Positions 3,553-62,614 are shown, numbered from the stretch's first letter. The stretch is 64,000 nt of DNA from a bacterium (GCA_021777565.1 JAJYDJ010000001.1:88431-152430); one strand, 5' to 3'. The notes: generated by a model from the letters alone, not told the origin. Numbers and translations: made by a program.

Positions 3553-4416
3553 ATGTACGAAGTAGAACCACAGGTATTGCATGAACGAGCTGAAATGCTT
3601 GCTGCAGTACTTACTGAATTTGACCAAGAGCATCCAGGAGAACTGCATGATCTTAATTTTGTGGAACAAAGAGAATATGAAGATCTCTGCTTAGTCTTTT
3701 TGGGTCTCAAACCTGCTACTACTCCTATTGGATCAGGACAAGAGCTACATCCTGACCTGATCGATCTCATGGCCAAGGCACTTGGCGAAGGTGCTGATGC
3801 TCATTTGCGCGTGGAGTATCAGTGGAATATGCCTCAAGTCATCTGGAATCCAGAACTCGTGAGGAGAGTTTTAGGTGAACACCCTGATATGGAATCCGCA
3901 CAAGCAGTTTTAGAAGCGCTAGATGGCGGAGAAGCATTGACGCAGTATCTATTTTGGTTAGATAGCTCGGAAGAAGTTGCAGATAGAGCGCTTTCTGGTA
4001 TGCTCTTTGGATTTCCACCAGCAGCTGCTGAAGGGATGATGGATCTTACTGATCAAATGGTTGAGATTATCCACGGCCTAGCATATGGAGAAAGACGTCA
4101 ATATCGGCAGGAAATCCCCGTTGGATGGGTCCTTTTTGACACTGAAGATTCACCAAATCCTCCTGACCGTGATCGATTTGGGGGAAGGGGCCCACGAGAG
4201 ATTTTCCTTGAAGAATGTGATCGATTGGTAGCAGCAGGGCAACTAGATCAAGCATTTGTCGATCAAGTACGACAACTCCATCCTGCCAATGTCCCTGGAA
4301 ATCCATATATTACCTTGGGGGATGCAACAGTCTTGGACGAAGGGAAACTTCGTTCACAATGGGCGCTTGCAGGAATACAAGGACAACTAAATCATATGTT
4401 TGGCGTGGTGGAATAA
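3553..4416 (+). CDS. Hypothetical acidic protein
   Basis: ATG preceded by TATACT-N8 (leaderless-type promoter); 287 aa. Confidence 0.45.
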   Translation: MYEVEPQVLHERAEMLAAVLTEFDQEHPGELHDLNFVEQREYEDLCLVFLGLKPATTPIGSGQELHPDLIDLMAKALGEGADAHLRVEYQWNMPQVIWNPELVRRVLGEHPDMESAQAVLEALDGGEALTQYLFWLDSSEEVADRALSGMLFGFPPAAAEGMMDLTDQMVEIIHGLAYGERRQYRQEIPVGWVLFDTEDSPNPPDRDRFGGRGPREIFLEECDRLVAAGQLDQAFVDQVRQLHPANVPGNPYITLGDATVLDEGKLRSQWALAGIQGQLNHMFGVVE

Positions 4417-5987: not shown

Positions 5988-6746
5988 CTATCTGTACCTA
6001 CTGTCTTTTCTCAACTCTTCTTCTGAAGGAGCAGTATTCCAATCCTCAACAAATAGTTCTTCAGCGAACCCTTTGGGGTAAATCCCAGGTTTGACCGCCA
6101 AGAGGGTAGTGCTGATCCCATCGTCGTAGGTAACCACGTCGTAGTTAAATGGTTCGCCCTCCAATATCGCTTCCATCCTGTCTGCTGTCTGAAATCCTGT
6201 CCTTTGGTTAAATGCGAGTTCATCACCGGTTGCATTATGTCTAGCAAAGCATGCTTTGATAACCCCACCTGGAGCCAAGTACCTATCCATTTGGTACGCA
6301 ACTAGCTCTGGGGCTGCACTATAGGCGATTGAATTTGATCCCAAAAATGCTCCAACTGTTCCTGGCTCTATGCCTGGCAAAGATAGTCCTTCTGCTGAAG
6401 TCATGTGGGTACGGGCTCTCCCTAAGTATCGATCTACTTGTGTTGGCATGCTCAGCACGGTGGCATGAAAATTAAGTCCTCTTGCCTGCTCAGTCCGTGA
6501 AAGTTCAAAAATACCACGCGTAGTGCCTTCACCCAAACCAACAATCGTGGGTCTGCCAATACATTTGAGATGGGCTAGTGTAGCATTCAAACCGCCAAGC
6601 CCGCCTATATAATAGGCTGCTTCGCGGTCAGTAATGTATGCTGGCTCTGATTTGGTCCTTTCAATTTCTCTGATTCTTCGAATCTGTGCTGCTGCGGCAT
6701 TGCGCTCAACGGATCCTTTCTCGATAGCTGTCTCAACATGAGTCAT
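5988..6746 (-). CDS. Hypothetical protein, possibly a SAM-dependent methyltransferase-like fold
   Basis: 'VGLGEGTTRG' (GxGxG) and 'LAPGGVIK' resemble methyltransferase motifs I and post-II; weak. Confidence 0.35.
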   Translation of the reverse strand: MTHVETAIEKGSVERNAAAAQIRRIREIERTKSEPAYITDREAAYYIGGLGGLNATLAHLKCIGRPTIVGLGEGTTRGIFELSRTEQARGLNFHATVLSMPTQVDRYLGRARTHMTSAEGLSLPGIEPGTVGAFLGSNSIAYSAAPELVAYQMDRYLAPGGVIKACFARHNATGDELAFNQRTGFQTADRMEAILEGEPFNYDVVTYDDGISTTLLAVKPGIYPKGFAEELFVEDWNTAPSEEELRKDSRYR

Positions 6747-6845: not shown

Positions 6846-7826
6846 ATGTTTCCTGACGTGTTGGTCCCCACATTGCAGAATAAAGAGAAGGCGGCGTTGC
6901 TATTAAAAAGTTACGGGAAAGATACCCTTTCATACTTTCATCTCCAGGAAGAACGTCAACATTTTTTCTCTCCTTCTGGAAAGTCCTTTCTGTCATTTAA
7001 GGTGCTTAACCGTGTCGCTATCGTCGCCGCGGATCCCGTGGGCCTCTCATCTGAGCTCCCAATCCTTCTGAAAGCATTCCTTGATTATACTAAGACATGG
7101 AAGTTAGTGCCGTGTTTTGTCGGACTAAGTGCCACATACATCTCATGTATACAATCCTATGGACTTAAGACGAAAAAAATCGGGGAGGAGGCAATTTTGT
7201 GCACAGAGCATTTTCAAAGAGAAAATTTGAAGAAAAAAGTGAAACATACACTGCGACATTTGGAAAAAGAAAATAGTGAGGTGTTCTTTTTTACATCCAA
7301 AAATTTGCCAGATGCAATACGCCAACAATTGAAGATGATTTCTCAGAGTTGGATTCAGAAAAAAGGTGGAAAAGAGAAAGGATTTTCAATGACCCTGAAA
7401 AGACTGCCTAATGAATCAGATGAGGATTGTCTTTTTGCCGTTGCGATGCATAGGGATCTTGCCTTGGGATATCTTTGTTTTGTGCCAATTTATAAGTCAG
7501 CAACATTGTCTTTGGATCAAGCTCGTCAAAAGAGTGATGCACCCAACGGGCTCAATGAACTTTTGATCATAAAATCTGCAGAATACTTTAGAGAAAGAGG
7601 TATAAAGAAATTAAGTCTGAATTTTGCTGCATTCTCACAGGTCACAACGCCAAAAACAGGAATAAAAAAAACAGTGTATGAAATCTTGGGAAATCTATAT
7701 AAAAGTAATACGCTTAGAAAGTTTAATGAAAAATTTCTGCCTTCATGGGAAGATAGGTATATTGCCTATCAGAGCCTTGGTCACATGCCACTATGTTTAC
7801 TCGCCATTTTACGTGCAGAGAGATAG
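6846..7826 (+). CDS. DUF2156-type domain protein (C-terminal aminoacyl-phosphatidylglycerol synthase/LPG-synthase-like domain, stand-alone)
   Basis: Reads like the soluble C-terminal aminoacyl-transferase domain of MprF-family enzymes without the flippase TM domain. I recognise the fold family but cannot point to a named motif. TATAAT-N6-ATG start. Confidence 0.6.
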   Translation: MFPDVLVPTLQNKEKAALLLKSYGKDTLSYFHLQEERQHFFSPSGKSFLSFKVLNRVAIVAADPVGLSSELPILLKAFLDYTKTWKLVPCFVGLSATYISCIQSYGLKTKKIGEEAILCTEHFQRENLKKKVKHTLRHLEKENSEVFFFTSKNLPDAIRQQLKMISQSWIQKKGGKEKGFSMTLKRLPNESDEDCLFAVAMHRDLALGYLCFVPIYKSATLSLDQARQKSDAPNGLNELLIIKSAEYFRERGIKKLSLNFAAFSQVTTPKTGIKKTVYEILGNLYKSNTLRKFNEKFLPSWEDRYIAYQSLGHMPLCLLAILRAER

Positions 7827-9800: not shown

Positions 9801-9832
9801 AAAAAGACCAGACTAAAGTCTGGCATTTTATT
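9801..9832. terminator. Bidirectional rho-independent terminator hairpin
   Basis: AAAAA-GACCAGAC-TAAA-GTCTGG-C-ATTTTATT: 6-7 bp stem flanked by an A-run and a T-run. It lies downstream of the minus-strand Nudix gene. Confidence 0.5.
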
Positions 9833-9834
9833 CT

Positions 9835-9870
9835 GCAGGGGCTAGTGGACTTTGTTAGAACTCATTTTAT
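9835..9870. repeat. Imperfect direct repeat, copy A (gcaggggctagtgGactTTgttAgaac...)
   Basis: About 80% identical over about 35 nt to 13885-13920. Sits in an intergenic 3'UTR region. Confidence 0.6.
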
Positions 9871-11360: not shown

Positions 11361-12472
11361 AGATTCTCTATCATGCCATTAATAGTATTGGGGTTGGTCA
11401 TCTAAGTAGGCTTATTGGCGTGGCTGGTGGTATTCGTGAGATTAATCCTGGAGTATCGCAGCTGTTTTTAACTGAAGTCAAAGAGACAAAGTTTCTTAAA
11501 CTGCATAATTTCCCTTACTTCCCGTTGCCTTCCTTTCATGCGGTTCAAAAAGACCAAGAATGGTTAGGGATATTGAAGAGTAAAGAAATGTGGGTGAACA
11601 ATGTTAGCTCTCTCATTCATGCATATAATCCAGATATCATGATCTATGACACGGCAACATGGGCAGAAGTTTCTAATGCAGTGCGCACATGTCAGGTGAA
11701 GCCAAAGGAAGTCTTTATCCTTAGGGCCAGAAGGGATATGAAAAGATATTTTGAAGAGAATCAAGAAATTTTTTCACATTTAGACTTGCTTGTTTTCCCT
11801 CATTCAGAAGATGAATTAAACCCCGCGGAGATACCGCCTTACTTGCGTAAAAAGTACTTTGTGTCTGGAAGCATACTGCGGAGAGATGTCTCAGAAATAA
11901 ATAAAGAGGTGATTGAAGAGAAATATGCAGTAGAGGATGACTCTCAATTTATTATAACTGTGACAAACGGAGGAGGTAATTCATTACAGGAAGATAAAGA
12001 GCATTTCCTTCAGGATGTGCTACAGGCGATTTTTAATTGTGACGACAAGCTTCCTCCAAATTACAAAGTAATTGTTGTCGCTGGACCGCTTCTATTGAAT
12101 ATTACACTTCCTTCAATTCACTTACCACATGGTGAACTCATTATTCGTGAATATGAACCCTTAATGATCGATCTAATGGCGTTATCTAACTTAGTGATTT
12201 GTCGTGGAGGTTACAATACGATTAATGAAGTAATATCAATAAATACGCCAACTATAGCTATCCCTGCAGAGAGACTTTCAGATGACCAATTTAGTAGGGT
12301 AGAAAAAGTTGCTTCAAAGTCTGATAGTATTTTGCCAATAAGAATAGAAATGTTAGAAGATGCCTTGATAAATATTATACCAAAAGCTGTTTCATGGAAG
12401 TTCTGTGTTCCTGAAGTAGATGTGAGAAAGAAAAATAAGCTGAAGCTAGCTGAAAGGATCTTGAGTCTATGA
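11357..12472 (+). CDS. GT-B glycosyltransferase, GT28 C-terminal/PseG-SpsG-like
   Basis: N-terminal 'GVGHLSRL' (GxGHxxR) and C-terminal 'GGYNTINEVISINTPTIAIP' nucleotide-sugar binding region. The start ATG overlaps the UbiA stop. Confidence 0.6.
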   Translation: MKILYHAINSIGVGHLSRLIGVAGGIREINPGVSQLFLTEVKETKFLKLHNFPYFPLPSFHAVQKDQEWLGILKSKEMWVNNVSSLIHAYNPDIMIYDTATWAEVSNAVRTCQVKPKEVFILRARRDMKRYFEENQEIFSHLDLLVFPHSEDELNPAEIPPYLRKKYFVSGSILRRDVSEINKEVIEEKYAVEDDSQFIITVTNGGGNSLQEDKEHFLQDVLQAIFNCDDKLPPNYKVIVVAGPLLLNITLPSIHLPHGELIIREYEPLMIDLMALSNLVICRGGYNTINEVISINTPTIAIPAERLSDDQFSRVEKVASKSDSILPIRIEMLEDALINIIPKAVSWKFCVPEVDVRKKNKLKLAERILSL

Positions 12473-13155
12473 CAGAGCAAGAGCCAGTAGCAATTATTAC
12501 ATGTGGTGGTTTTGCGACACGTATGGGTGGAGAGCCTAAGTATCTTTTGCCTGTAACAGAGTCGGATAGAGTCATTGACCTAGCATTGGACCCAATCACG
12601 CGTCAACCAGAATTAGTAACTAGGCATGTTATTCTCGCTAGTGGGGCTCATAGAGAAGCCGTAGAGGATTATGCAGAAGTGTTGCGAGGCAGACACCCAA
12701 GTATAACTTTTGATATTAGTCATAGTAACCCTGAAGGTCAGTTTCACGCAATTGCACATGCTGCTGAAAAGTATGGAGTAGAAGGCAATGTAATTATCAT
12801 GAATGCAGACGAGATCGTGCCAGGGCTTGATTTAGTGTCAGCGCTGAGGGTGCATACAGACGCTCACCATAGTATTACACGCGTTGTCACAAGGGCAAGC
12901 AATGAAGGGACATCGTCTCTTAATGTTGATGAAGAAGATCGAGCTACGTTTTCTCAAACAAACTTTAGTGTATATGCAACTGGAGTCATTATTATTAGTC
13001 CATATGCAATGCAAATCGCAAAACAGTGTAGGAGTTCCCAGGAGTTTTGGGATATAATGACTACTACGCACCAAATACATGTTATTATCTGTGAAGCATC
13101 CTTGAATGTTAATACACCTGACGATTTAGAGGAAGCACGAAGGCGATTTAGTTGA
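12469..13155 (+). CDS. Nucleotidyltransferase (MobA/IspD-like NTP-transferase domain)
   Basis: 'IITCGGFATRMGGEPKYLLPV' matches GGxxxRMG...K of NTP_transf_3-type enzymes. The start overlaps the upstream stop. Confidence 0.55.
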   Translation: MTEQEPVAIITCGGFATRMGGEPKYLLPVTESDRVIDLALDPITRQPELVTRHVILASGAHREAVEDYAEVLRGRHPSITFDISHSNPEGQFHAIAHAAEKYGVEGNVIIMNADEIVPGLDLVSALRVHTDAHHSITRVVTRASNEGTSSLNVDEEDRATFSQTNFSVYATGVIIISPYAMQIAKQCRSSQEFWDIMTTTHQIHVIICEASLNVNTPDDLEEARRRFS

Positions 13156-13156
13156 T

Positions 13157-13855
13157 ATGAGCGATCTTATAATACCAAAACATCTGGGACTTATTGTTGA
13201 CGGTAATAGACGTTGGGCTAAAGCTCGTAATTTAAGTCCTCTCTATGGTCATGAAGTGGGAATTAGGGATGTGCTCCCTGGTATTATCAATCAGGCACAC
13301 AGGGTTGGAGTAGAGGAGGTTTCAGCTTGGATATTTTCAACAGAGAACTGGGACAGAAGTGATGAAGAGGTAGATCACCTGATGCAGCTTTTTATAAAAT
13401 TCACAGAGAGACTTTTGGATAGAGCAAAAGAGGATAGTATAGAAGTAAAACATGTGGGAAGAAAAGATCGAATTCCATCTCTATTAGTAGAGAGCTTAAT
13501 CAGGCTTGAAAAAGCCACGTTGGGACTTCCTAAAAGGCTCAATCTTTGTATTGATTTTGGTGGCAGGGATGAAATAGCGACAGCTGTTAGAGGCATAGTG
13601 AAAAATTGTGTCTCAGAAGAGAATATAGATGAAGGATTGATAGGTGATTATGTAAATAAATACAACGGTTTTAGGTTTAGTCCGGACCTTATTATTCGCA
13701 CAGGTGGGGCACAGCGTACTAGTGGCTTTATGGTTTGGGAAGCAGCGTATGCAGAGCTTGCTTTTGAAGAAAGTTATTTTCCTGACTTTACGCAGGATCT
13801 TCTAATGAAATGGCTTTCCGAGTACTCTTCGCGTGAAAGAAGATTTGGCAAATAG
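13157..13855 (+). CDS. uppS: Isoprenyl transferase (undecaprenyl-diphosphate synthase family, cis-prenyltransferase)
   Basis: 'HLGLIVDGNRRWA' and 'FSTENWDRSDEEV' UppS signatures. Confidence 0.85.
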   Translation: MSDLIIPKHLGLIVDGNRRWAKARNLSPLYGHEVGIRDVLPGIINQAHRVGVEEVSAWIFSTENWDRSDEEVDHLMQLFIKFTERLLDRAKEDSIEVKHVGRKDRIPSLLVESLIRLEKATLGLPKRLNLCIDFGGRDEIATAVRGIVKNCVSEENIDEGLIGDYVNKYNGFRFSPDLIIRTGGAQRTSGFMVWEAAYAELAFEESYFPDFTQDLLMKWLSEYSSRERRFGK

Positions 13856-13884
13856 ACTATTATCCTGTCTCGACGAGATCATCA

Positions 13885-13920
13885 GCAGGGGCTAGTGAAC
13901 TACGTTGGAAACTTTTATAC
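13885..13920. repeat. Imperfect direct repeat, copy B (gcaggggctagtgAactACgttGgaaac...)
   Basis: Matches 9835-9870. Sits between the uppS operon and the defense/mobile segment. Confidence 0.6.
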
Positions 13921-27672: not shown

Positions 27673-28818
27673 ATGCAATTTGTAAATAACTTCTTCGGCC
27701 TTTTCTCCCACGATATCGGTATAGATTTGGGCACTGCGAATACGCTCGTTTGGGTCAGAGGGAAGGGCATTGTTATCCGTGAACCGTCCGTTGTTGCTAG
27801 GCACAGAAAAACAAAAGAAGTGATCGCCATTGGGACTGAGGCAAAATTAATGGTCGGGAAGACACCAGCAACGATAGAAACTGTGCGCCCACTTCGTGAA
27901 GGAGTCATCGCTGATTTTGATGCTGCCCGTGTGATGGTAGAACACTATGTAAAAGAAGTAAAATCCCGTCGTAATGATATGACAGCCGCCCTAGCAAGAC
28001 CTCGAGTTGCTATTGGCATCCCTTCATCCAGTACTGAAGTGCAGCGTCGTGCGGTCTGGGAGGCTGCCTTATCAGCAGGTGCTCGAGAAGCATTTTTAGT
28101 TGAAGAACCAATGGCTGCGGCAATTGGCGCTGGAGTCTCTGTTTTTGCCCCAACTGGTGTGATGGTAGTTGATATGGGGGGAGGCACCACAGAAATTGCG
28201 ATTATTTCTCTGGGTGGTATTGTGGTAAGCAGGTCACTTCCTATCGCTGGCGATAATTTTGACGAAGCGATTGTTCACTATATCCGCCTCAGGCACGGAT
28301 TGTTGATTGGCGAGAGAACAGCAGAAGAATTAAAAATAAGTATTGGCAGTGCCTATGAGCTAACCCCAAAACAAGAAAAAGCGAAAAAGAAGAAGAAAGA
28401 AGATGAAGAAGAGGCAGAAGAAACTGAAGAAGAAGAAAGTGAAGAAAAGAAAACTGGTGAAAAGGTTGCTGTTATTCGCGGGCGTGATTTAGAAACAGGA
28501 CTACCAAAAAGTATTCGTATTCACACCCATGAAGTCAGGGAAGCACTTATGCCGGTTTTGATGGAAATTATTAGTGCGATTATGGACATTGTCCATGATG
28601 CACCACCAGAGTTGACCAGTGATATTTTGGAGCATGGCATATTGGTAACTGGTGGTGGATCACTACTTCCTGGAGTTGATCGACTGATTGTTGAACATAC
28701 CAAAATCCCAGTACTGCTTGCAGAAGATCCACTTACGACAGTGGTGAGAGGTTGTGGGAAGGTTTTGGAAGATATGCCAATGCTTGATCGCGTCAAAGTA
28801 ACGGGTGGATTGAAGTAA
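27673..28818 (+). CDS. mreB: Rod shape-determining protein MreB (with acidic low-complexity insertion)
   Basis: 'GIDLGTANTLVWV', 'VVDMGGGTTEIAII' actin-fold motifs; insertion 'KEKAKKKKKEDEEEAEETEEEESEEKK'; TATAAT-N6-ATG. Confidence 0.9.
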   Translation: MQFVNNFFGLFSHDIGIDLGTANTLVWVRGKGIVIREPSVVARHRKTKEVIAIGTEAKLMVGKTPATIETVRPLREGVIADFDAARVMVEHYVKEVKSRRNDMTAALARPRVAIGIPSSSTEVQRRAVWEAALSAGAREAFLVEEPMAAAIGAGVSVFAPTGVMVVDMGGGTTEIAIISLGGIVVSRSLPIAGDNFDEAIVHYIRLRHGLLIGERTAEELKISIGSAYELTPKQEKAKKKKKEDEEEAEETEEEESEEKKTGEKVAVIRGRDLETGLPKSIRIHTHEVREALMPVLMEIISAIMDIVHDAPPELTSDILEHGILVTGGGSLLPGVDRLIVEHTKIPVLLAEDPLTTVVRGCGKVLEDMPMLDRVKVTGGLK

Positions 28819-48889: not shown

Positions 48890-49396
48890 ATGGGGCGAAA
48901 AGTGATAGTGAATGATCTCATGCAAAAAAACTACGTGTATGAGTGCACCGAGCCGATGGGCAAAAACTTTGCTCCCGATTTTCATCCCGAACTTACTCCA
49001 CAGGAAATGCTCGCACTTGGGGTGTTTGGTGGAAAATACATGACCGATTGCAGAGAGGAGTTCCCAGAAGAATGGTATGTGCATGCAAAGTTGTGTCACC
49101 AGTTTCATGACCCTCATCTTAATTTTTTTGGTGTGAATGCTTCACAACCACTTTCTGTTTGGCGACAAAAGGGATGGATTTATCCAGATGATCCACGCGG
49201 GTGGTTTCAGTGGTATTGTCGCTATTTTATGGGAAGACGAATACCGGATGAAGATGCTCGGCAGATAAAAAGGTGGAGGGCGATCAGAAGACATGTGTCT
49301 CAAGTTAAAAAAAATTGTAGCAAGGGGGATTTCTCTTGCCATAGAAAACAAAGACAGGCACTACTGCACTGGGCATACGACAGCAGGTTGCTTTAA
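48890..49396 (+). CDS. Hypothetical protein
   Basis: 168 aa, Trp/Cys-rich. Confidence 0.45.
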   Translation: MGRKVIVNDLMQKNYVYECTEPMGKNFAPDFHPELTPQEMLALGVFGGKYMTDCREEFPEEWYVHAKLCHQFHDPHLNFFGVNASQPLSVWRQKGWIYPDDPRGWFQWYCRYFMGRRIPDEDARQIKRWRAIRRHVSQVKKNCSKGDFSCHRKQRQALLHWAYDSRLL

Positions 49397-57476: not shown

Positions 57477-58244
57477 ATGGACCAATCAGCACCACAGCCA
57501 GCCACCCCAGAAGTCCCAGTCCCACCAACTCCCATGCCACAAGTGCCACAAATGCCACCAACGCCAGTAGTCATGCCATCTCCATCTGGTAGTAAAATGC
57601 CGTATATTCTTTTGGTAATTGTTCTTGTCCTCGTGTTTTCTGGAGTCTCGTACTATCTAGGGACAAAGACTGCCGGTTTACTGCCGATGGGGTATCAAAG
57701 ACCTACGGAACAGACCAAGATGGCGTATCCGACACAGCAAGTATTACCAAGTGCGACGCCTACTCCTGACCCAACTGCAAGCTGGCAAGTATTTACGAAT
57801 GCAAAATTTGGCTACACGATTAAATATCCAACTGGGTTGGTGCCAAATGAGCAAAATACCTATTACCACTATGTTGAATTCAAGGCACAAAATGCGACTG
57901 GGCAACTTCCTACGTATGTGGTGTCAGCAATCCCTGCTACCTTCACGGCGGCCAATCCTGCCGCATATAACTACATGTCCGCTGACTGGATCAGTAGTAT
58001 TAGTGCCGTTCCTGTGGGGCAAACAAAGACGATGGACCAGGCGGCGATGTTTACGCGTTTGCCAGATATGACGGTGGATGGCCAGAGCGCGGTCGCGATA
58101 GAAGTAGTAGCAACGGGATACAAGCAGCAGCGTGTGTACATAAAGGCAAATGGCAATATCTACATGATCTCAAATTACTTCCAGACTCCGGCAGAACTTA
58201 CTGACTTCCAGCTCTTCCTCTCAACCTTCAAGCTGACCCAATAA
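57477..58244 (+). CDS. Pro-rich membrane-anchored hypothetical protein ('TNAKFGYTIKYP' family)
   Basis: Pro-rich N-terminus, one TM, shared motif with 49860-50453; CATACT-N6-ATG. Confidence 0.5.
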   Translation: MDQSAPQPATPEVPVPPTPMPQVPQMPPTPVVMPSPSGSKMPYILLVIVLVLVFSGVSYYLGTKTAGLLPMGYQRPTEQTKMAYPTQQVLPSATPTPDPTASWQVFTNAKFGYTIKYPTGLVPNEQNTYYHYVEFKAQNATGQLPTYVVSAIPATFTAANPAAYNYMSADWISSISAVPVGQTKTMDQAAMFTRLPDMTVDGQSAVAIEVVATGYKQQRVYIKANGNIYMISNYFQTPAELTDFQLFLSTFKLTQ

Positions 58245-58273
58245 GCCACCCAGTCCCGTGGTATACTTCTTAT

Positions 58274-58747
58274 ATGGAAGAAAAAGCAAGACGCATCATC
58301 TCTAAGAATCTTTTTATGACCCTTGCCTCTGTCTCTATGGATGGAGAGCCATGGAGTACACCAGTTTTCTATGCCACGGATAGTACTATGAAAAAATTCT
58401 TCTGGTACTCGAGGAAAGACACCGTGCATTCACAAAACATTAAGTCTAATACGAAAGTCACTGCATCACTATTTTCACTAGATGGTGAGGATGCTATGAC
58501 TGGCGTATATCTCAAAGGCTATGCTCATGAAGTTGAAGAGACAGAATTAGATGAAGCGATCGCTGCCTACATCGCAAAAGCTGCACAAACTGATGAAGAA
58601 AAAGAGTTGCTATCTCGTAAAGAAGACTTTCTTGGTGATGCGCCACTTCGCATGTATGTCATGGAAGTGGAGGAATGTTCCATTTCCGGTGAGGCTTCCA
58701 AGTGGAATGGGAAATGGATGGACACGAGAGAGAACGTAAACCTGTAA
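58274..58747 (+). CDS. Pyridoxamine 5'-phosphate oxidase-like FMN-binding split-barrel protein
   Basis: 'LFMTLASVSMDGEPWSTPVFYA' family pattern; TATACT-N6-ATG. Confidence 0.6.
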   Translation: MEEKARRIISKNLFMTLASVSMDGEPWSTPVFYATDSTMKKFFWYSRKDTVHSQNIKSNTKVTASLFSLDGEDAMTGVYLKGYAHEVEETELDEAIAAYIAKAAQTDEEKELLSRKEDFLGDAPLRMYVMEVEECSISGEASKWNGKWMDTRENVNL

Positions 58748-58750
58748 TAT

Positions 58751-58774
58751 GCAATCTTAGTAGGATTGCTTTTC
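58751..58774 (+). terminator. Rho-independent terminator
   Basis: GCAATC-TTAGTAG-GATTGC followed by TTTT. Confidence 0.55.
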
Positions 58775-58869
58775 TGAGACATAAGATTTATCTTCTTCTG
58801 TAGGATCTACAAAGTCGTCATACAGACATATGGCAGCATTGAATCTATGTATAGATAGGAGGTGAAAGC

Positions 58870-59172
58870 ATGAAGAACAGAAATGAACTTGAGATTGCAG
58901 CGAGCGCGAACAATGCATTTGTAGCAATTGAGTCAGCAAAGGAAGAAACATCAAATGAAAGCGATGAGGATATACTATCTCGGCTTGAGAATCTAGTAAG
59001 GGGAATCATAAAAGGTGAGTACAAACTCGTTGAAGACCTTAGAAAGATAATCGAGTCAGAAGAAATGAATAGTATATTTTCTTTTGAGGTTACTGCAGGT
59101 GGATTGTCATTACCCTTAGAAAGATTTTTGCGAGACCTCATTGATGCAGTGAAGACCAAGGTGAGCGCATAA
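58870..59172 (+). CDS. Hypothetical protein
   Basis: AGGAGGTG SD 6 nt upstream of the ATG; 100 aa. Confidence 0.45.
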   Translation: MKNRNELEIAASANNAFVAIESAKEETSNESDEDILSRLENLVRGIIKGEYKLVEDLRKIIESEEMNSIFSFEVTAGGLSLPLERFLRDLIDAVKTKVSA

Positions 59173-59203
59173 TCTGCTATAACCACCTCATGAATTTGTC
59201 AGT
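59172..59203. repeat. Direct repeat copy 1: duplicate of the ychF promoter and start (ctgctataaCcacctcATGaatttgtcAgt)
   Basis: 29/31 identical to 59686-59716; would encode only MNLSVAEYRKKI*. Confidence 0.7.
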
Positions 59204-59224
59204 AGCTGAATACAGAAAGAAGAT

Positions 59225-59677
59225 TTAGTTCTGTGGGGTGGCGGGGGCTTCACTTAGATCCATGAAAAAGAGTTCCCATGCATGTCCATCAAGATCACTG
59301 AATGCCTTTCCATACATGAAGTCATCTTCTGGTCCTTTTTCATCTAGGTTAGTTCCGCCGGCTTCTAAGGCTTTTCTGTGAAGTTCATCAACTTTTTCTC
59401 TGGACTCACACGAAAGAGCAAACATCGCTTCCTTTTGTGCACGCGCATCAGCAATTTGTACTTCTGGGATAAAACTGTGAAAGAAATCTTCTGTTAGAAG
59501 CATGACAAAGATCCCATTTTTTTCATCCAGCATGAGAGCAGCGCCTTTATCGTTGGTAAATTGGGGATTAAACGCAAATCCTAATTTCTCCCAAAATATT
59601 TTTGAAGCTGGTAAATCTTTAACTGGAAGATTAATAAAAATTTGATGTCCCATCATACTCAGCATACCATACATCAA
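59225..59677 (-). CDS. Glyoxalase/bleomycin-resistance (VOC) family protein
   Basis: About 150 aa VOC-like fold; bracketed by the 31-bp direct repeats. Confidence 0.65.
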   Translation of the reverse strand: MMYGMLSMMGHQIFINLPVKDLPASKIFWEKLGFAFNPQFTNDKGAALMLDEKNGIFVMLLTEDFFHSFIPEVQIADARAQKEAMFALSCESREKVDELHRKALEAGGTNLDEKGPEDDFMYGKAFSDLDGHAWELFFMDLSEAPATPQN

Positions 59678-59683
59678 AAATAA

Positions 59684-59716
59684 TTTCCTGCTATAATCAC
59701 CTCATGAATTTGTCTG
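59684..59716. repeat. Direct repeat copy 2: native ychF promoter (TATAAT) and start codon
   Basis: Matches 59172-59203. Confidence 0.7.
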
Positions 59717-60801
59717 TTGGAATTGTCGGGTTACCAAATGTCGGGAAGTCGACGCTTTTTAATGCGCTTTTGAAAAAGCAGCAGGCGCTCGCTGCCAATT
59801 ATCCCTTTGCTACTATCGAGCCCAATGTGGGTATCGTCGCCGTGCCAGATGAGAGACTCGTGAAACTAGCTGAGATCACGAAAGATGAAGAAAAGATGGC
59901 AAGTCTACCACCACTTAAGCCTGCTACCGTGGAGTTTGTCGACATCGCAGGTCTGGTCAAGGGTGCATCAGAGGGAGCAGGGCTTGGTAATAAATTTCTC
60001 TCCCACATAAGAGAGGTGAGTGTGATCGCACATGTCGTCCGGGCATTTGAAGACGCCAATATCATAAAAGAAGGTGCAGTCGACCCCAAAAGTGATTATG
60101 AAACTATCGTCACTGAGCTCATCCTTGCAGACTTGCAGACGGTGAATAAAGTGCTTGAGAATCGCAAAATGGAGCCACAAAGAAAGTCTGGTGCAGAAAA
60201 ACTTTTAGCAGTTCTCAATGAAGGCAAACCAGCCCGTTACGCAGTACTCACTGATGAAGAGCGCGAGATGGTAAAAGATTTGTTTCTTCTCTCATCAAAA
60301 CCTGAAGTTATTGTCCTCAATGTCTCAGAAGAACAATACACACCAGAAGGTATCGAGAAAGCGATCGAGGAGTATGTCAAGAACACGGGGCATGATCGTG
60401 AGTCACTGGTCGTCATCTGTGCGAAGATAGAGTCGGATCTGGCGGGATTATCAGATACTGAGCAAAAAGAATATCTGGAGAGTATGGGACTTGAAAAATC
60501 GGGTCTTGAAAGGCTTATTCAGAAAGCATATGACAATCTTGGACTGATGAGTTTTCTCACCTGTGGAGAGAAAGAAGTACGTGCCTGGACTATCAAAAAA
60601 GGTCTGTCTGCACCTCTGGCGGCAGGGGAGATCCACACTGACTTTATCAAGAAGTTTATTAAGGCAGAAGTCGTGAGCTATAGTGACTTTGTAGAGAACA
60701 ATGGATGGAAAGGCAGTCGTGAAAAAGGGAAAGCACGGATTGAAGGAAAAGAATACATCATGCATGATGGTGATGTTGTCGAATTTAAGATAGGAAGTTA
60801 A
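59704..60801 (+). CDS. ychF: Redox-regulated ATPase YchF (Obg-like GTPase family)
   Basis: 'VGIVGLPNVGKSTLFNAL' G1 motif; C-terminal TGS domain; TATAAT-N6-ATG. Confidence 0.9.
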   Translation: MNLSVGIVGLPNVGKSTLFNALLKKQQALAANYPFATIEPNVGIVAVPDERLVKLAEITKDEEKMASLPPLKPATVEFVDIAGLVKGASEGAGLGNKFLSHIREVSVIAHVVRAFEDANIIKEGAVDPKSDYETIVTELILADLQTVNKVLENRKMEPQRKSGAEKLLAVLNEGKPARYAVLTDEEREMVKDLFLLSSKPEVIVLNVSEEQYTPEGIEKAIEEYVKNTGHDRESLVVICAKIESDLAGLSDTEQKEYLESMGLEKSGLERLIQKAYDNLGLMSFLTCGEKEVRAWTIKKGLSAPLAAGEIHTDFIKKFIKAEVVSYSDFVENNGWKGSREKGKARIEGKEYIMHDGDVVEFKIGS

Positions 60802-61457
60802 TGTACATTGCGGATGCCACTTGACCCCAAGATTCCTAGATCCCGGTAAAAAAAGTAGAGATAATTTCCTTGATGCACAGGGACATCACTAAAAGAGGAG
60901 ATGTCTGGGAATGCTTCTAGTGTCGGATATCGATATTTACGTTTTACTGTGGGGACTTGTGCGTACTCTTTGACTTCTCTCCAACTAACAGGAAGTGCAA
61001 CAAGTGAACATTCTTTCTTGATGTGTCTGATCTGTATCACTCCGATTGATTTTAGTCCTAGGAGCCGTGCTAGCCAAATACGATGTAAGCCATCCAGCAC
61101 AATTGATACCTCTTTTTTTTGCTCGACATCATAGTAGGTCTCAACAATTGGGGGAGTCATCGTAAAGGATTGACCTGCAAAGTCATATCTAATGCTACTT
61201 CGCAAGTCAAAAATGTTAAGTGAGAAATCTTGAAAAAGTGGAGAGAGTTTTTTTTGTACAGTTAGTTGCTCGGCGAGTACATAGAGGGCAATCGGTTGCA
61301 GAGTAGTAATGGCGGCATGTTTTGGTTCAATAATTGCATCTTCATACGGCTTGATGTGTGTGTCACCCATGAGCCGCACATTGCGCAGCATATGTTCTAC
61401 TTCATGAAAGCTGTGTAAGGACGTAATACGTAATGCTGAATTATTGTCATTCTCCAT
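60798..61457 (-). CDS. Hypothetical protein with ParB/sulfiredoxin-like motif
   Basis: 'IVLDGLHRIWLARLLGL...IQI' resembles the ParB/Srx 'DGHHR' fold. Confidence 0.4.
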   Translation of the reverse strand: MENDNNSALRITSLHSFHEVEHMLRNVRLMGDTHIKPYEDAIIEPKHAAITTLQPIALYVLAEQLTVQKKLSPLFQDFSLNIFDLRSSIRYDFAGQSFTMTPPIVETYYDVEQKKEVSIVLDGLHRIWLARLLGLKSIGVIQIRHIKKECSLVALPVSWREVKEYAQVPTVKRKYRYPTLEAFPDISSFSDVPVHQGNYLYFFYRDLGILGSSGIRNVH

Positions 61458-61549: not shown

Positions 61550-62614
61550 CTATGCCTGGAGAAGATATCCTTTGCCTTTGGCAACTTTAATAGTTGCACT
61601 TGGTTCTAGCTTAACTAACTTTTTCTTCATACGATACATCAATTGGCTGATGGCCCATTCTGAATACTTAATCTCCCAATCATCTTCTCCCCAAATTGCT
61701 TTTGCGATATCGTTTTTGGAGACAATTTTACCTGTCTGTTGGCACAGTAAATCGTAGACTCTCTCTTCAAGGAACGAAAAGTCTCTCTTATTTGCATGGA
61801 TCATACGATACATGTCACTTAGAAGAGGATTAAAAAATTTGTCTCCTTGGAGGAGGCCGATCTGGCGCAGCTGTGTCTTCTCAGTGTTGGTAAGTTGTCC
61901 GTGTACAACCTTATCAATAATCTCTGCGGGGAAATCTTTTAAAATGGAAGAAAGCTTATATACCATTGAAGGTTGTGCCAGGAGGAATGTTGAGGTGAAA
62001 CGGGCATCTGGATTCTCCAAACGCAGGAGCGTAAGTGCTTTGACCAACCCTGCATGACCACAACTAAGTTCAAAAATTTCTTTCTTCTCGTCTTCACTCA
62101 AGTTGCTTTTAATCTTATTTGTATGTTCCGCAATGATTTGTTTTGCGTCGTTGTAATTTACTAAATGAAGCATTGTAAGATATTGCATAAGGGCTTTGGA
62201 TGTTACATTGAAGGCACTGTATACTTCTTTTGTTCCAGAGAAAAGGTAAAATATGAATCCTTCCTGATGCTTATAACGTAAGTTATCTAGTGCATCCACA
62301 AGCCAGGATGCATCTTCTGTCAGAAAAATGTTGATACAAGCAATCACAGGCGTATCTTGCTTCTGGAGGATAGCGATGAACTCTCTCAGTTCTTCTACAG
62401 AGATGGTGTTACAGACGAAGAGTTCGTATTCCTTAGGACGATTGCTCTCAAGATACTGCACGACCGCAGTAAACAAATGATCTTTCCCAACGCCAGCCAT
62501 ACCTATAAACGTGGCTGGTTCATGGAGAAGTACCTTTTGCTTAACATTCTTAAGCAGCTTTTTGTCGCGATCCACAATGGCTCCTGGAAGGCGTGGGATT
62601 GCATATGGTGGCAT
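61550..62614 (-). CDS. P-loop ATPase with C-terminal OmpR/PhoB-type winged-helix domain (paralog of 39371-40663)
   Basis: Walker A 'GMAGVGKD'; C-terminal 'DIAKAIWGEDDWEIKYSEWAISQLMYRMKKKL...KGKGYLL'. Confidence 0.55.
   Translation of the reverse strand: MPPYAIPRLPGAIVDRDKKLLKNVKQKVLLHEPATFIGMAGVGKDHLFTAVVQYLESNRPKEYELFVCNTISVEELREFIAILQKQDTPVIACINIFLTEDASWLVDALDNLRYKHQEGFIFYLFSGTKEVYSAFNVTSKALMQYLTMLHLVNYNDAKQIIAEHTNKIKSNLSEDEKKEIFELSCGHAGLVKALTLLRLENPDARFTSTFLLAQPSMVYKLSSILKDFPAEIIDKVVHGQLTNTEKTQLRQIGLLQGDKFFNPLLSDMYRMIHANKRDFSFLEERVYDLLCQQTGKIVSKNDIAKAIWGEDDWEIKYSEWAISQLMYRMKKKLVKLEPSATIKVAKGKGYLLQA

Follow-up and report, generated by a model that had tools for sequence, protein, structure and literature searches.

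A displaced copy of the ychF promoter and start codon beside a small accessory gene in Candidatus Levyibacteriota, and its counterparts at ychF in related lineages

Homology-facilitated illegitimate recombination (HFIR) imports non-homologous DNA through one homologous anchor junction and one illegitimate junction (PMC3240628), and is rare in laboratory systems (PMC5361080). Displacement arrays are known in T6SS effector-immunity and Rhs loci (PMC5361080, PMC2935791), where the proposed mechanism is HFIR or a circular intermediate, the latter for the Rhs tips (PMC2935791), and SXT/R391 elements insert at the 5' end of prfC, the gene being kept functional (PMC2791158). How genes are gained and swapped in CPR/Patescibacteria, which have tiny genomes and few classical mobile elements, is poorly understood. 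Where HFIR is seen in the laboratory, its usual by-product is the deletion of recipient DNA. Here we describe a locus at which the promoter and start codon of the housekeeping gene ychF occur twice in direct orientation, on either side of a single minus-strand gene of the Glyoxalase/VOC family (Table 1), in the window, i.e., the whole 64-kb stretch of bacterial DNA that was analysed. The best YchF matches among species genomes belong to Candidatus Levyibacteriota (CPR/Patescibacteria), the lineage being uncultivated, and the local gene order is PNPOx-family (+), ORF100 (+), upstream copy, VOC (-), downstream copy with ychF (+), and ParB-CE (-).

Table 1 Features of the ychF locus, in coordinates of the window.
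Feature	Position	Strand	Details
PNPOx-family gene	58274-58747	+	Terminator-like hairpin directly after
Terminator-like hairpin, then T-run	58751-58769	+	Parts the PNPOx-family gene from the ORF100/stub unit
ORF100, 100-aa ORFan	58870-59172	+	Strong Shine-Dalgarno AGGAGGTGA 5 nt before ATG; stop 1 nt before the upstream repeat copy
Upstream copy, displaced ychF 5' stub	59174-59203	+	TG 59175-59176; -10 TATAAC 59178-59183; spacer CACCTC; ATG 59190; first 14 nt of ychF coding sequence
12-codon remnant ORF (MNLSVAEYRKKI, then stop)	59190-59228	+	Starts at the stub ATG; stop codon overlaps the opposite-strand VOC stop codon
VOC/glyoxalase-family gene, 142 aa, cargo between the copies	59225-59653	-	PF00903 E=1.8e-8; likely start ATG 59653-59651
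Downstream copy, working ychF start	59688-59717	+	Extended -10 TGCTATAAT 59689-59697; 6-nt spacer CACCTC; ATG 59704; codons 1-5
ychF (redox-regulated ATPase YchF), 365 aa	59704-60801	+	TIGR00092 E=6e-124, 414 bits; PF06071, PF01926

The two copies of the repeat (CTGCTATAACCACCTCATGAATTTGTCAGT upstream and CTGCTATAATCACCTCATGAATTTGTCTGT downstream), as delimited by a repeat search, are 30 nt long, lie 514 nt apart from start to start and are identical at 28 of 30 positions. A first-pass annotation of this DNA had described such a duplication of the ychF promoter and start, with two mismatches between the copies and exactly one gene, the opposite-strand VOC/glyoxalase, between them; all of this holds, while its coordinates were 2 nt off and the length and spacing that it gave were 31 and 513 nt. 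One mismatch (59183/59697, C/T) falls on the final base of the -10 hexamer and the other (59201/59715, A/T) on the third base of Ser codon 4 (TCA/TCT), where it is synonymous, and the similarity may reach ~59169-59211 when one 3-nt gap is permitted. Only these two copies of the 30-mer occur in the 64-kb window with up to three mismatches permitted; none of 100 dinucleotide shuffles yielded two matches to it, and in a repeat search across the window no other gene end carried a comparable repeat. Eight contigs encoding an identical YchF are on record (ENA, Logan; the longest 953 kb), and the repeat structure is real, since the four that we compared, each an independent contig from the Levyibacteriota species of the window, show no base difference from it across the overlap and all carry both copies (4/4). 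This agreement rules out an assembly artefact, and a chance repeat or a common genomic repeat is ruled out by the shuffles, the two-copy count, the window-wide search and the contig comparison. Elsewhere in the window, an intergenic 29-nt direct repeat (9832-9860 and 13882-13910, 83% identical, 4050 nt apart) brackets five genes.

The downstream copy is the genuine -10 and start of ychF, as the first-pass annotation had it, with most of the 120 homologues listed beginning MNLSVGIVGLPNVGKS like the protein that opens at its ATG; the highly conserved P-loop codons begin at about +13. Because the -10 ends 6 nt before the ATG and there is no Shine-Dalgarno sequence, ychF is probably leaderless, its layout agreeing with a leaderless definition of a -10 that ends 5-8 nt before the start codon and no Shine-Dalgarno, and the "ychF leader" into which an insertion had been proposed probably does not exist. 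The layout TGnTAnAAT-N6-7-ATG is found upstream of ychF in most CPR relatives, whereas non-CPR bacteria have GGAGG instead. Within the window, an extended -10 (TGnTAnnWT) stands 5-8 nt before the ATG of 14 of 63 ORFs (for example, 5988-6746(-), 6846-7826(+), 27673-28818(+), 48890-49396(+) and 61550-62614(-)), compared with 2 of 328 internal ATGs, and Shine-Dalgarno-like motifs before the window ORFs show no enrichment over background, so this genome seems to rely heavily on leaderless transcripts. A scan for classical -35/-10 promoters returned zero matches, and is uninformative for extended -10 promoters, which are without a -35. YchF has been reported to regulate the translation of leaderless mRNA (Landwehr et al. 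2021, cited in PMC12641178), and one could speculate that ychF, its mRNA itself looking leaderless, is autoregulated.

The upstream copy has the layout TGCTATAAC-N6-ATG followed by 11 nt, with unrelated sequence beyond, and opens a 12-codon ORF only, as had been noted before. In its -10, the conserved final T is replaced by C. Loss of this base is expected to cripple a sigma-70 promoter. No Rfam family was matched at the stub, and the RNA of 59165-59235 folds no better than its shuffles on both strands (z = 0.48 and -0.51). Since the -10 lacks its conserved final T and the reading frame stops after 12 codons, we read the upstream copy, from its sequence, as an inert leftover of a ychF promoter and start, and neither a promoter nor a gene should be annotated there. 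Immediately before it, ORF100 has no Pfam/NCBIfam match and, among 5.8 billion proteins, no homologue other than itself; we presume it to be the resident gene to the left of the displaced ychF start. A stub beyond the VOC 3' end is so far unique to the window's species. No empty-site allele, in which ORF100 would be followed directly by ychF, was found, ORF100 being an ORFan and the sole sister contig (L090) ending inside VOC, with the stub region outside the visible sequence.

The VOC gene has a comparable start of its own. On its own strand, TGGTATGCT and a further 7 nt (59669-59654) precede the ATG, and VOC also looks leaderless; the start is placed at 59653 because the close VOC homologues are all 142 aa long. 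With this extended -10 on the other strand, the 50-nt spacer between VOC and ychF would be a compact back-to-back promoter pair. The VOC-50 nt-ychF arrangement is common to the window and the sister lineage L090, in which YchF is 88% identical and nucleotide identity is ~90%, except in the 120-nt block 59640-59760, which comprises the divergent promoter pair and the first ~57 nt of ychF and is 100% identical, also at synonymous sites. Either the leaderless 5' end is under strong constraint at the nucleotide level, or the block is a tract that was recently exchanged. The VOC homologues in L085, L086 and L089 likewise have TGnTAnAAT and 6-7 nt before the ATG, and their proteins are 81%, 80% and 77% identical to that of the window, respectively, the next-best matches (at most 56%) being in other phyla. 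YchF is 70% identical to the window's in L085 and 58% in L086. That VOC is 77-81% identical where YchF is only 58-70% identical points to horizontal movement of VOC between lineages, and VOC, though apparently mobile in this way, would be a gene that repeatedly lands beside ychF.

In L085 and L086, VOC lies near ychF with one further gene between them (209 aa and 202 aa, mutually unrelated), and decayed ychF starts stand directly beside the VOC start in L085 (TGATATAAT...ATTAATCTAACTGTAGGGATAGTTAATTTGCCA, reading INLTVGIVNLP), L089 (CCTGCTATAAT...ATGTCTTTAAAGGTAGGG, reading MSLKVG) and L086 (AAATTTGTCTGT), so that the 209-aa and 202-aa genes are wedged between the decayed start and the real ychF. 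The adjacency of VOC and ychF is older than the window's species, and VOC is therefore not a fresh insertion into a naive ychF leader. At the 3' flank of VOC, no stub is present in L085, L086 or L214-L216, which leaves a self-contained cassette of VOC plus repeat unsupported. Other relatives have different upstream neighbours of ychF (PNPOx in L007, HAD and NYN in L091/L092, NosD and others in L093), and the comparison of related ychF upstream regions that the first-pass annotation had proposed thus finds them polymorphic for what precedes ychF. We do not claim synteny from PNPOx to ychF between the window and L085, the two PNPOx-family genes not being detectably orthologous.

The recurrence of stubs at ychF was assessed in JGI metagenomes, in which a scan for the coding pattern of MNLSVGIVGLPNVG retrieved 120 ychF loci. 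For each locus with at least 150 nt upstream (n=111), its own ychF segment from -30 to +120 was aligned against the upstream 6 kb with a cut-off score of 36. Direct upstream matches scoring at least 36 were found at 11 of the 111 loci; in 10 of these the ychF 5' end is duplicated, and in L193 the match is a 55-nt copy of the 3' end of the upstream gene. The controls gave no matches, neither in inverted orientation (0/111), nor with two mid-gene queries in either orientation (0/74), nor with the 5' query against downstream sequence (0/66). Two loci (L132 and L197) where the search pattern had matched the stub itself were added, for a total of 113, and direct copies upstream of ychF then stand at 12/113, compared with 5/448 for the 5' ends of other genes at the same loci (Fisher p=6.7e-6). 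The loci with copies come from distinct lineages (102 clusters at 97% identity). Among 80 species-representative genomes, no duplication upstream of ychF reached the score cut-off.

The stubs begin at or slightly upstream of the promoter and end at widely scattered positions (+11, +14, +17, +27, +31, +31, +38, +40, +54, +68, +74, +86 and +106), with no shared motif after them and no fixed crossover core. They lie 150-3600 nt upstream of the working start, and the duplicated length in relatives runs from ~25 to >100 nt; long stubs are present at L190 (94 nt), L197 (86 nt) and L132 (62 nt). The cargo is unrelated from case to case (SpoIIAA-like, NYN in two cases, RhuM/Fic, AbiEii with a partner, DUF4234, a secreted repeat protein, and unknowns), no integrase, transposase or recombinase was found in the 10 cargo proteins scanned, and every case has an intact ychF preceded by a complete start. 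In cases with cargo on the same strand as ychF, TATAAT is intact in the stub and often missing from the working copy, so the stub promoter probably drives both the cargo and ychF. In the window, by contrast, the cargo is antisense and the -10 of the stub is broken.

Several further arrangements were observed at or near ychF. L155 (oriented, 13176-13370) has 40 nt of the ychF start in duplicate, and the extra copy, 154 nt ahead of the working start, includes a perfect TGCTATAAT promoter; the insert, at 114 nt, holds no gene, and the working copy has GGAGG, not a -10. In L007 (2690-2790; nzgw402, Levyibacteriota), a 48-nt mini-duplication of the ychF start without cargo was spotted by eye, despite there being no match at the cut-off in the species-representative set; there, TGGTATAAT-N7-ATGAATCTTTCC opens a 15-codon ORF (MNLSFDKLRIDLIKL, then stop) whose TGA overlaps the real ATGAATTTATCT start, and the structure may be what an insert left behind when it was lost, or else a coupled leaderless uORF. 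About eight lineages (including L091, L094, L112, L133, L145, L161 and L190) have a gene with an NYN domain (PIN-like nuclease) 110-220 nt upstream of ychF and on its strand, and in two of them stubs lie beyond NYN. Other gene ends bear similar direct repeats: the 55-nt 3'-end copies of L193 (oriented, 3577-3631 and 4240-4295) bracket a 163-aa minus-strand ORF, and L145 (oriented, near 11737-12483(-)) has a promoter-region duplication of at least 32 identical nt before an unrelated gene, with near-identity continuing ~40 nt further upstream. Downstream of ychF in L085 (1701-1914), the last 26 nt of the gene (…VEFKIGR, then stop) are present in four tandem copies (period 57-74 nt) with a small hairpin-like spacer after each one, as a 3'-end counterpart of the 5' stubs.

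Across 13 cases, 173 codons of stub and working copy were aligned; 64 of them differ, and 57 of these 64 are synonymous. By codon position, the differences number 15/4/55, Ser TCN/AGY swaps included, so that positions 1 and 2 hold 26% of them, versus at least ~55% predicted under neutral decay of one copy (binomial p=3e-7, computed against the most generous model of in-place duplication). Such near-synonymous-only divergence implies that both copies evolved as working genes, under purifying selection, before they were juxtaposed, and on this evidence stub and working copy would be orthologous ychF starts from different lineages, joined by recombination. It also implies that the DNA spliced in came from clearly diverged relatives. 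In the window alone, where the copies differ at 2/30 positions and at a single coding (and synonymous) one, the inference of separate lineages rests on class membership, the synonymous-site argument being taken from the relatives.

We propose with moderate confidence that these structures arose when foreign DNA was captured through homology at the conserved 5' end of ychF, displacing the resident start; the anatomy, the recurrence and the synonymous-only divergence are observed, and the mechanism of recombination and the identity of the resident copy are inferred. Two ychF neighbourhoods, one with ORF100 directly before ychF and one with VOC diverging from ychF, would have been joined by recombination. 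One junction would be homologous, within the very conserved 5' coding part of ychF, and the other illegitimate, ~14 nt into ychF; if the illegitimate junction falls within the first ~100 nt of a resident ychF, the promoter and start of that gene would be left as a stub. The route may have been HFIR with linear DNA, or a small circle bearing a 5' fragment of ychF may have entered by a single crossover, and the outcome would be an intact ychF behind the downstream copy, with the start of the other lineage stranded across the cargo gene. In the window, the donor could have brought either VOC with the working start or ORF100 with the stub. The same process would have acted repeatedly at ychF in Microgenomates/Levyibacteriota, importing small accessory genes. 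As in an HFIR-type product, the insert appears foreign, the VOC identities exceeding those of YchF and the cargo differing between lineages, and one junction lies in conserved sequence, the right-hand one being inside ychF, where the 5' coding region, with its P-loop codons at the very edge of the gene, is most conserved; the 120-nt block shared without change with L090 and the synonymous-only divergence fit this. Microhomology at the illegitimate junction amounts to a weak GAAT match just past the breakpoint.

A different source of the recombination, which we judge unlikely, would be site-specific integration, by a tyrosine or serine recombinase that acted in trans or has since been lost, of small elements that carry a surrogate ychF 5' end, the 30-mers then being attL and attR. 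The first-pass annotation had offered site-specific recombination as one option, and the strongly gene-specific hotspot, the complete replacement 5' end in front of every ychF and the precedent of SXT/R391 at the prfC 5' end all accord with it, as do repeats of unequal length, which are normal for different element families. The element described by Hochhut and Waldor in 1999 reportedly also restores promoter and start. The parts that define such a system are nevertheless missing at ychF: no integrase lies within ~4 kb on either side in the window (precomputed Pfam), no recombinase was found among the 10 cargo proteins or among five scanned proteins flanking VOC in L085/L086, inserts go down to the 114 nt of L155, the junctions have no common core, inverted repeat or hairpin, and the stub ends are scattered from +11 to +106. 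Taken together, the synonymous-only divergence, the scattered ends and the lack of a recombinase, terminal repeat or junction motif speak against transposition and weaken the att-site model. An integron cassette does not fit either, with no attC-type hairpin at 59165-59235 and no integrase recorded nearby.

The other option of the first-pass annotation was a cassette insertion with a long target duplication; in a transposition-like form, a mobile VOC cassette would have entered through a staggered cut and duplicated 30 nt of target. That the repeat marks an insertion or rearrangement stands, and copies that are 93% identical with exactly one gene between them speak for it, but we hold a long target duplication to be decidedly improbable. 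Usual target duplications are 2-15 nt, and 30 nt is far above this range; the duplicated length at ychF also varies among the relatives. None of the eight inverted-repeat pairs in 58000-61000 is at the insert ends (59204-59215 and 59675-59687), VOC is the sole gene in the insert, with no transposase or integrase within ~4 kb on either side (precomputed Pfam), and the adjacency of VOC and ychF predates the species. The copies should also have started out identical, yet the differing codons are overwhelmingly synonymous across the 13 ychF cases. The codon positions bear equally on a model, which we consider very unlikely, in which the ychF 5' region was tandemly duplicated in situ, a deletion or replacement followed and the upstream copy decayed neutrally: tandem duplication is the commonest spontaneous rearrangement, and the L007 mini-duplication has nothing between its copies, but the share of differences at positions 1 and 2 is far below that predicted for neutral decay, and in no case is there a further copy of the cargo beyond the stub. 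That the upstream copy is functional, as a decoy promoter, a uORF or an antisense promoter regulating VOC, is scarcely credible. It does retain TG-N-TATAA, the correct spacing and the ATG, and transcription from it would run antisense into VOC, but C replaces the final T of its -10, no other lineage has the element and there is no structure or RNA-family signal, making activity of the decoy promoter or uORF suggested earlier unlikely.

Homology-anchored capture with displacement of the resident start thus remains our preferred reading. A broader and rather doubtful extension of it is that the ychF 5' edge, where a leaderless promoter abuts an ultra-conserved P-loop coding stretch, serves as a general docking site for small accessory and defence genes in integrase-poor CPR, each capture displacing the resident start and promoter and the direct repeats (30-125 nt) looping the cargo out as a circle with one ychF 5' copy that would re-enter other lineages by a single crossover, i.e., integron-like exchange on homology alone. 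For the window by itself, the practical message, on how to annotate the upstream copy, is modest. For the CPR more broadly, the stubs would be physical scars of inter-lineage recombination beside a conserved housekeeping gene, repeated and at one preferred place, and, if this is confirmed, ychF-proximal stubs would offer a simple sequence signature with which to date and count such events in metagenomes.

As far as the literature searched shows, 5'-end displacement at ychF in CPR is recurrent and previously undescribed, and each of the closest described systems shares a part of it. Like HFIR in Acinetobacter, S. pneumoniae, P. stutzeri and E. coli conjugation, the proposed event combines one homologous and one illegitimate junction, whereas at ychF the illegitimate joint lies inside the anchor gene and the recipient promoter and start survive; the ychF cases are known here from sequence alone, and their hotspot and natural recurrence are new. 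SXT/R391 at prfC resembles ychF in that insertion takes place in the 5' end of a conserved translation-associated NTPase gene that is kept functional, but SXT is ~100 kb long, with its own tyrosine recombinase and near-identical attP and attB, while the inserts at ychF span 0.1-3.6 kb, with neither a recombinase nor a fixed core found. Integron cassettes, too, are small single-gene units that pile up at one promoter-side site, older ones being pushed away; at ychF, in contrast, no IntI, attI or attC-like hairpin was found and the orientation of the cargo is mixed. In the C-terminal displacement of Rhs, CDI and T6SS loci, an incoming segment likewise recombines through the conserved part and pushes the incumbent end aside, leaving direct partial copies of the conserved part and orphaned cargo. 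The ychF cases are the mirror image of this, with the 5' end of a housekeeping NTPase (promoter and start) displaced upstream, not a toxin 3' tip downstream, and with cargo that is unrelated to the function of the anchor gene; if confirmed, they would show that terminal displacement, so far known from toxin 3' tips, also takes place at the promoter and 5' end of a core gene.
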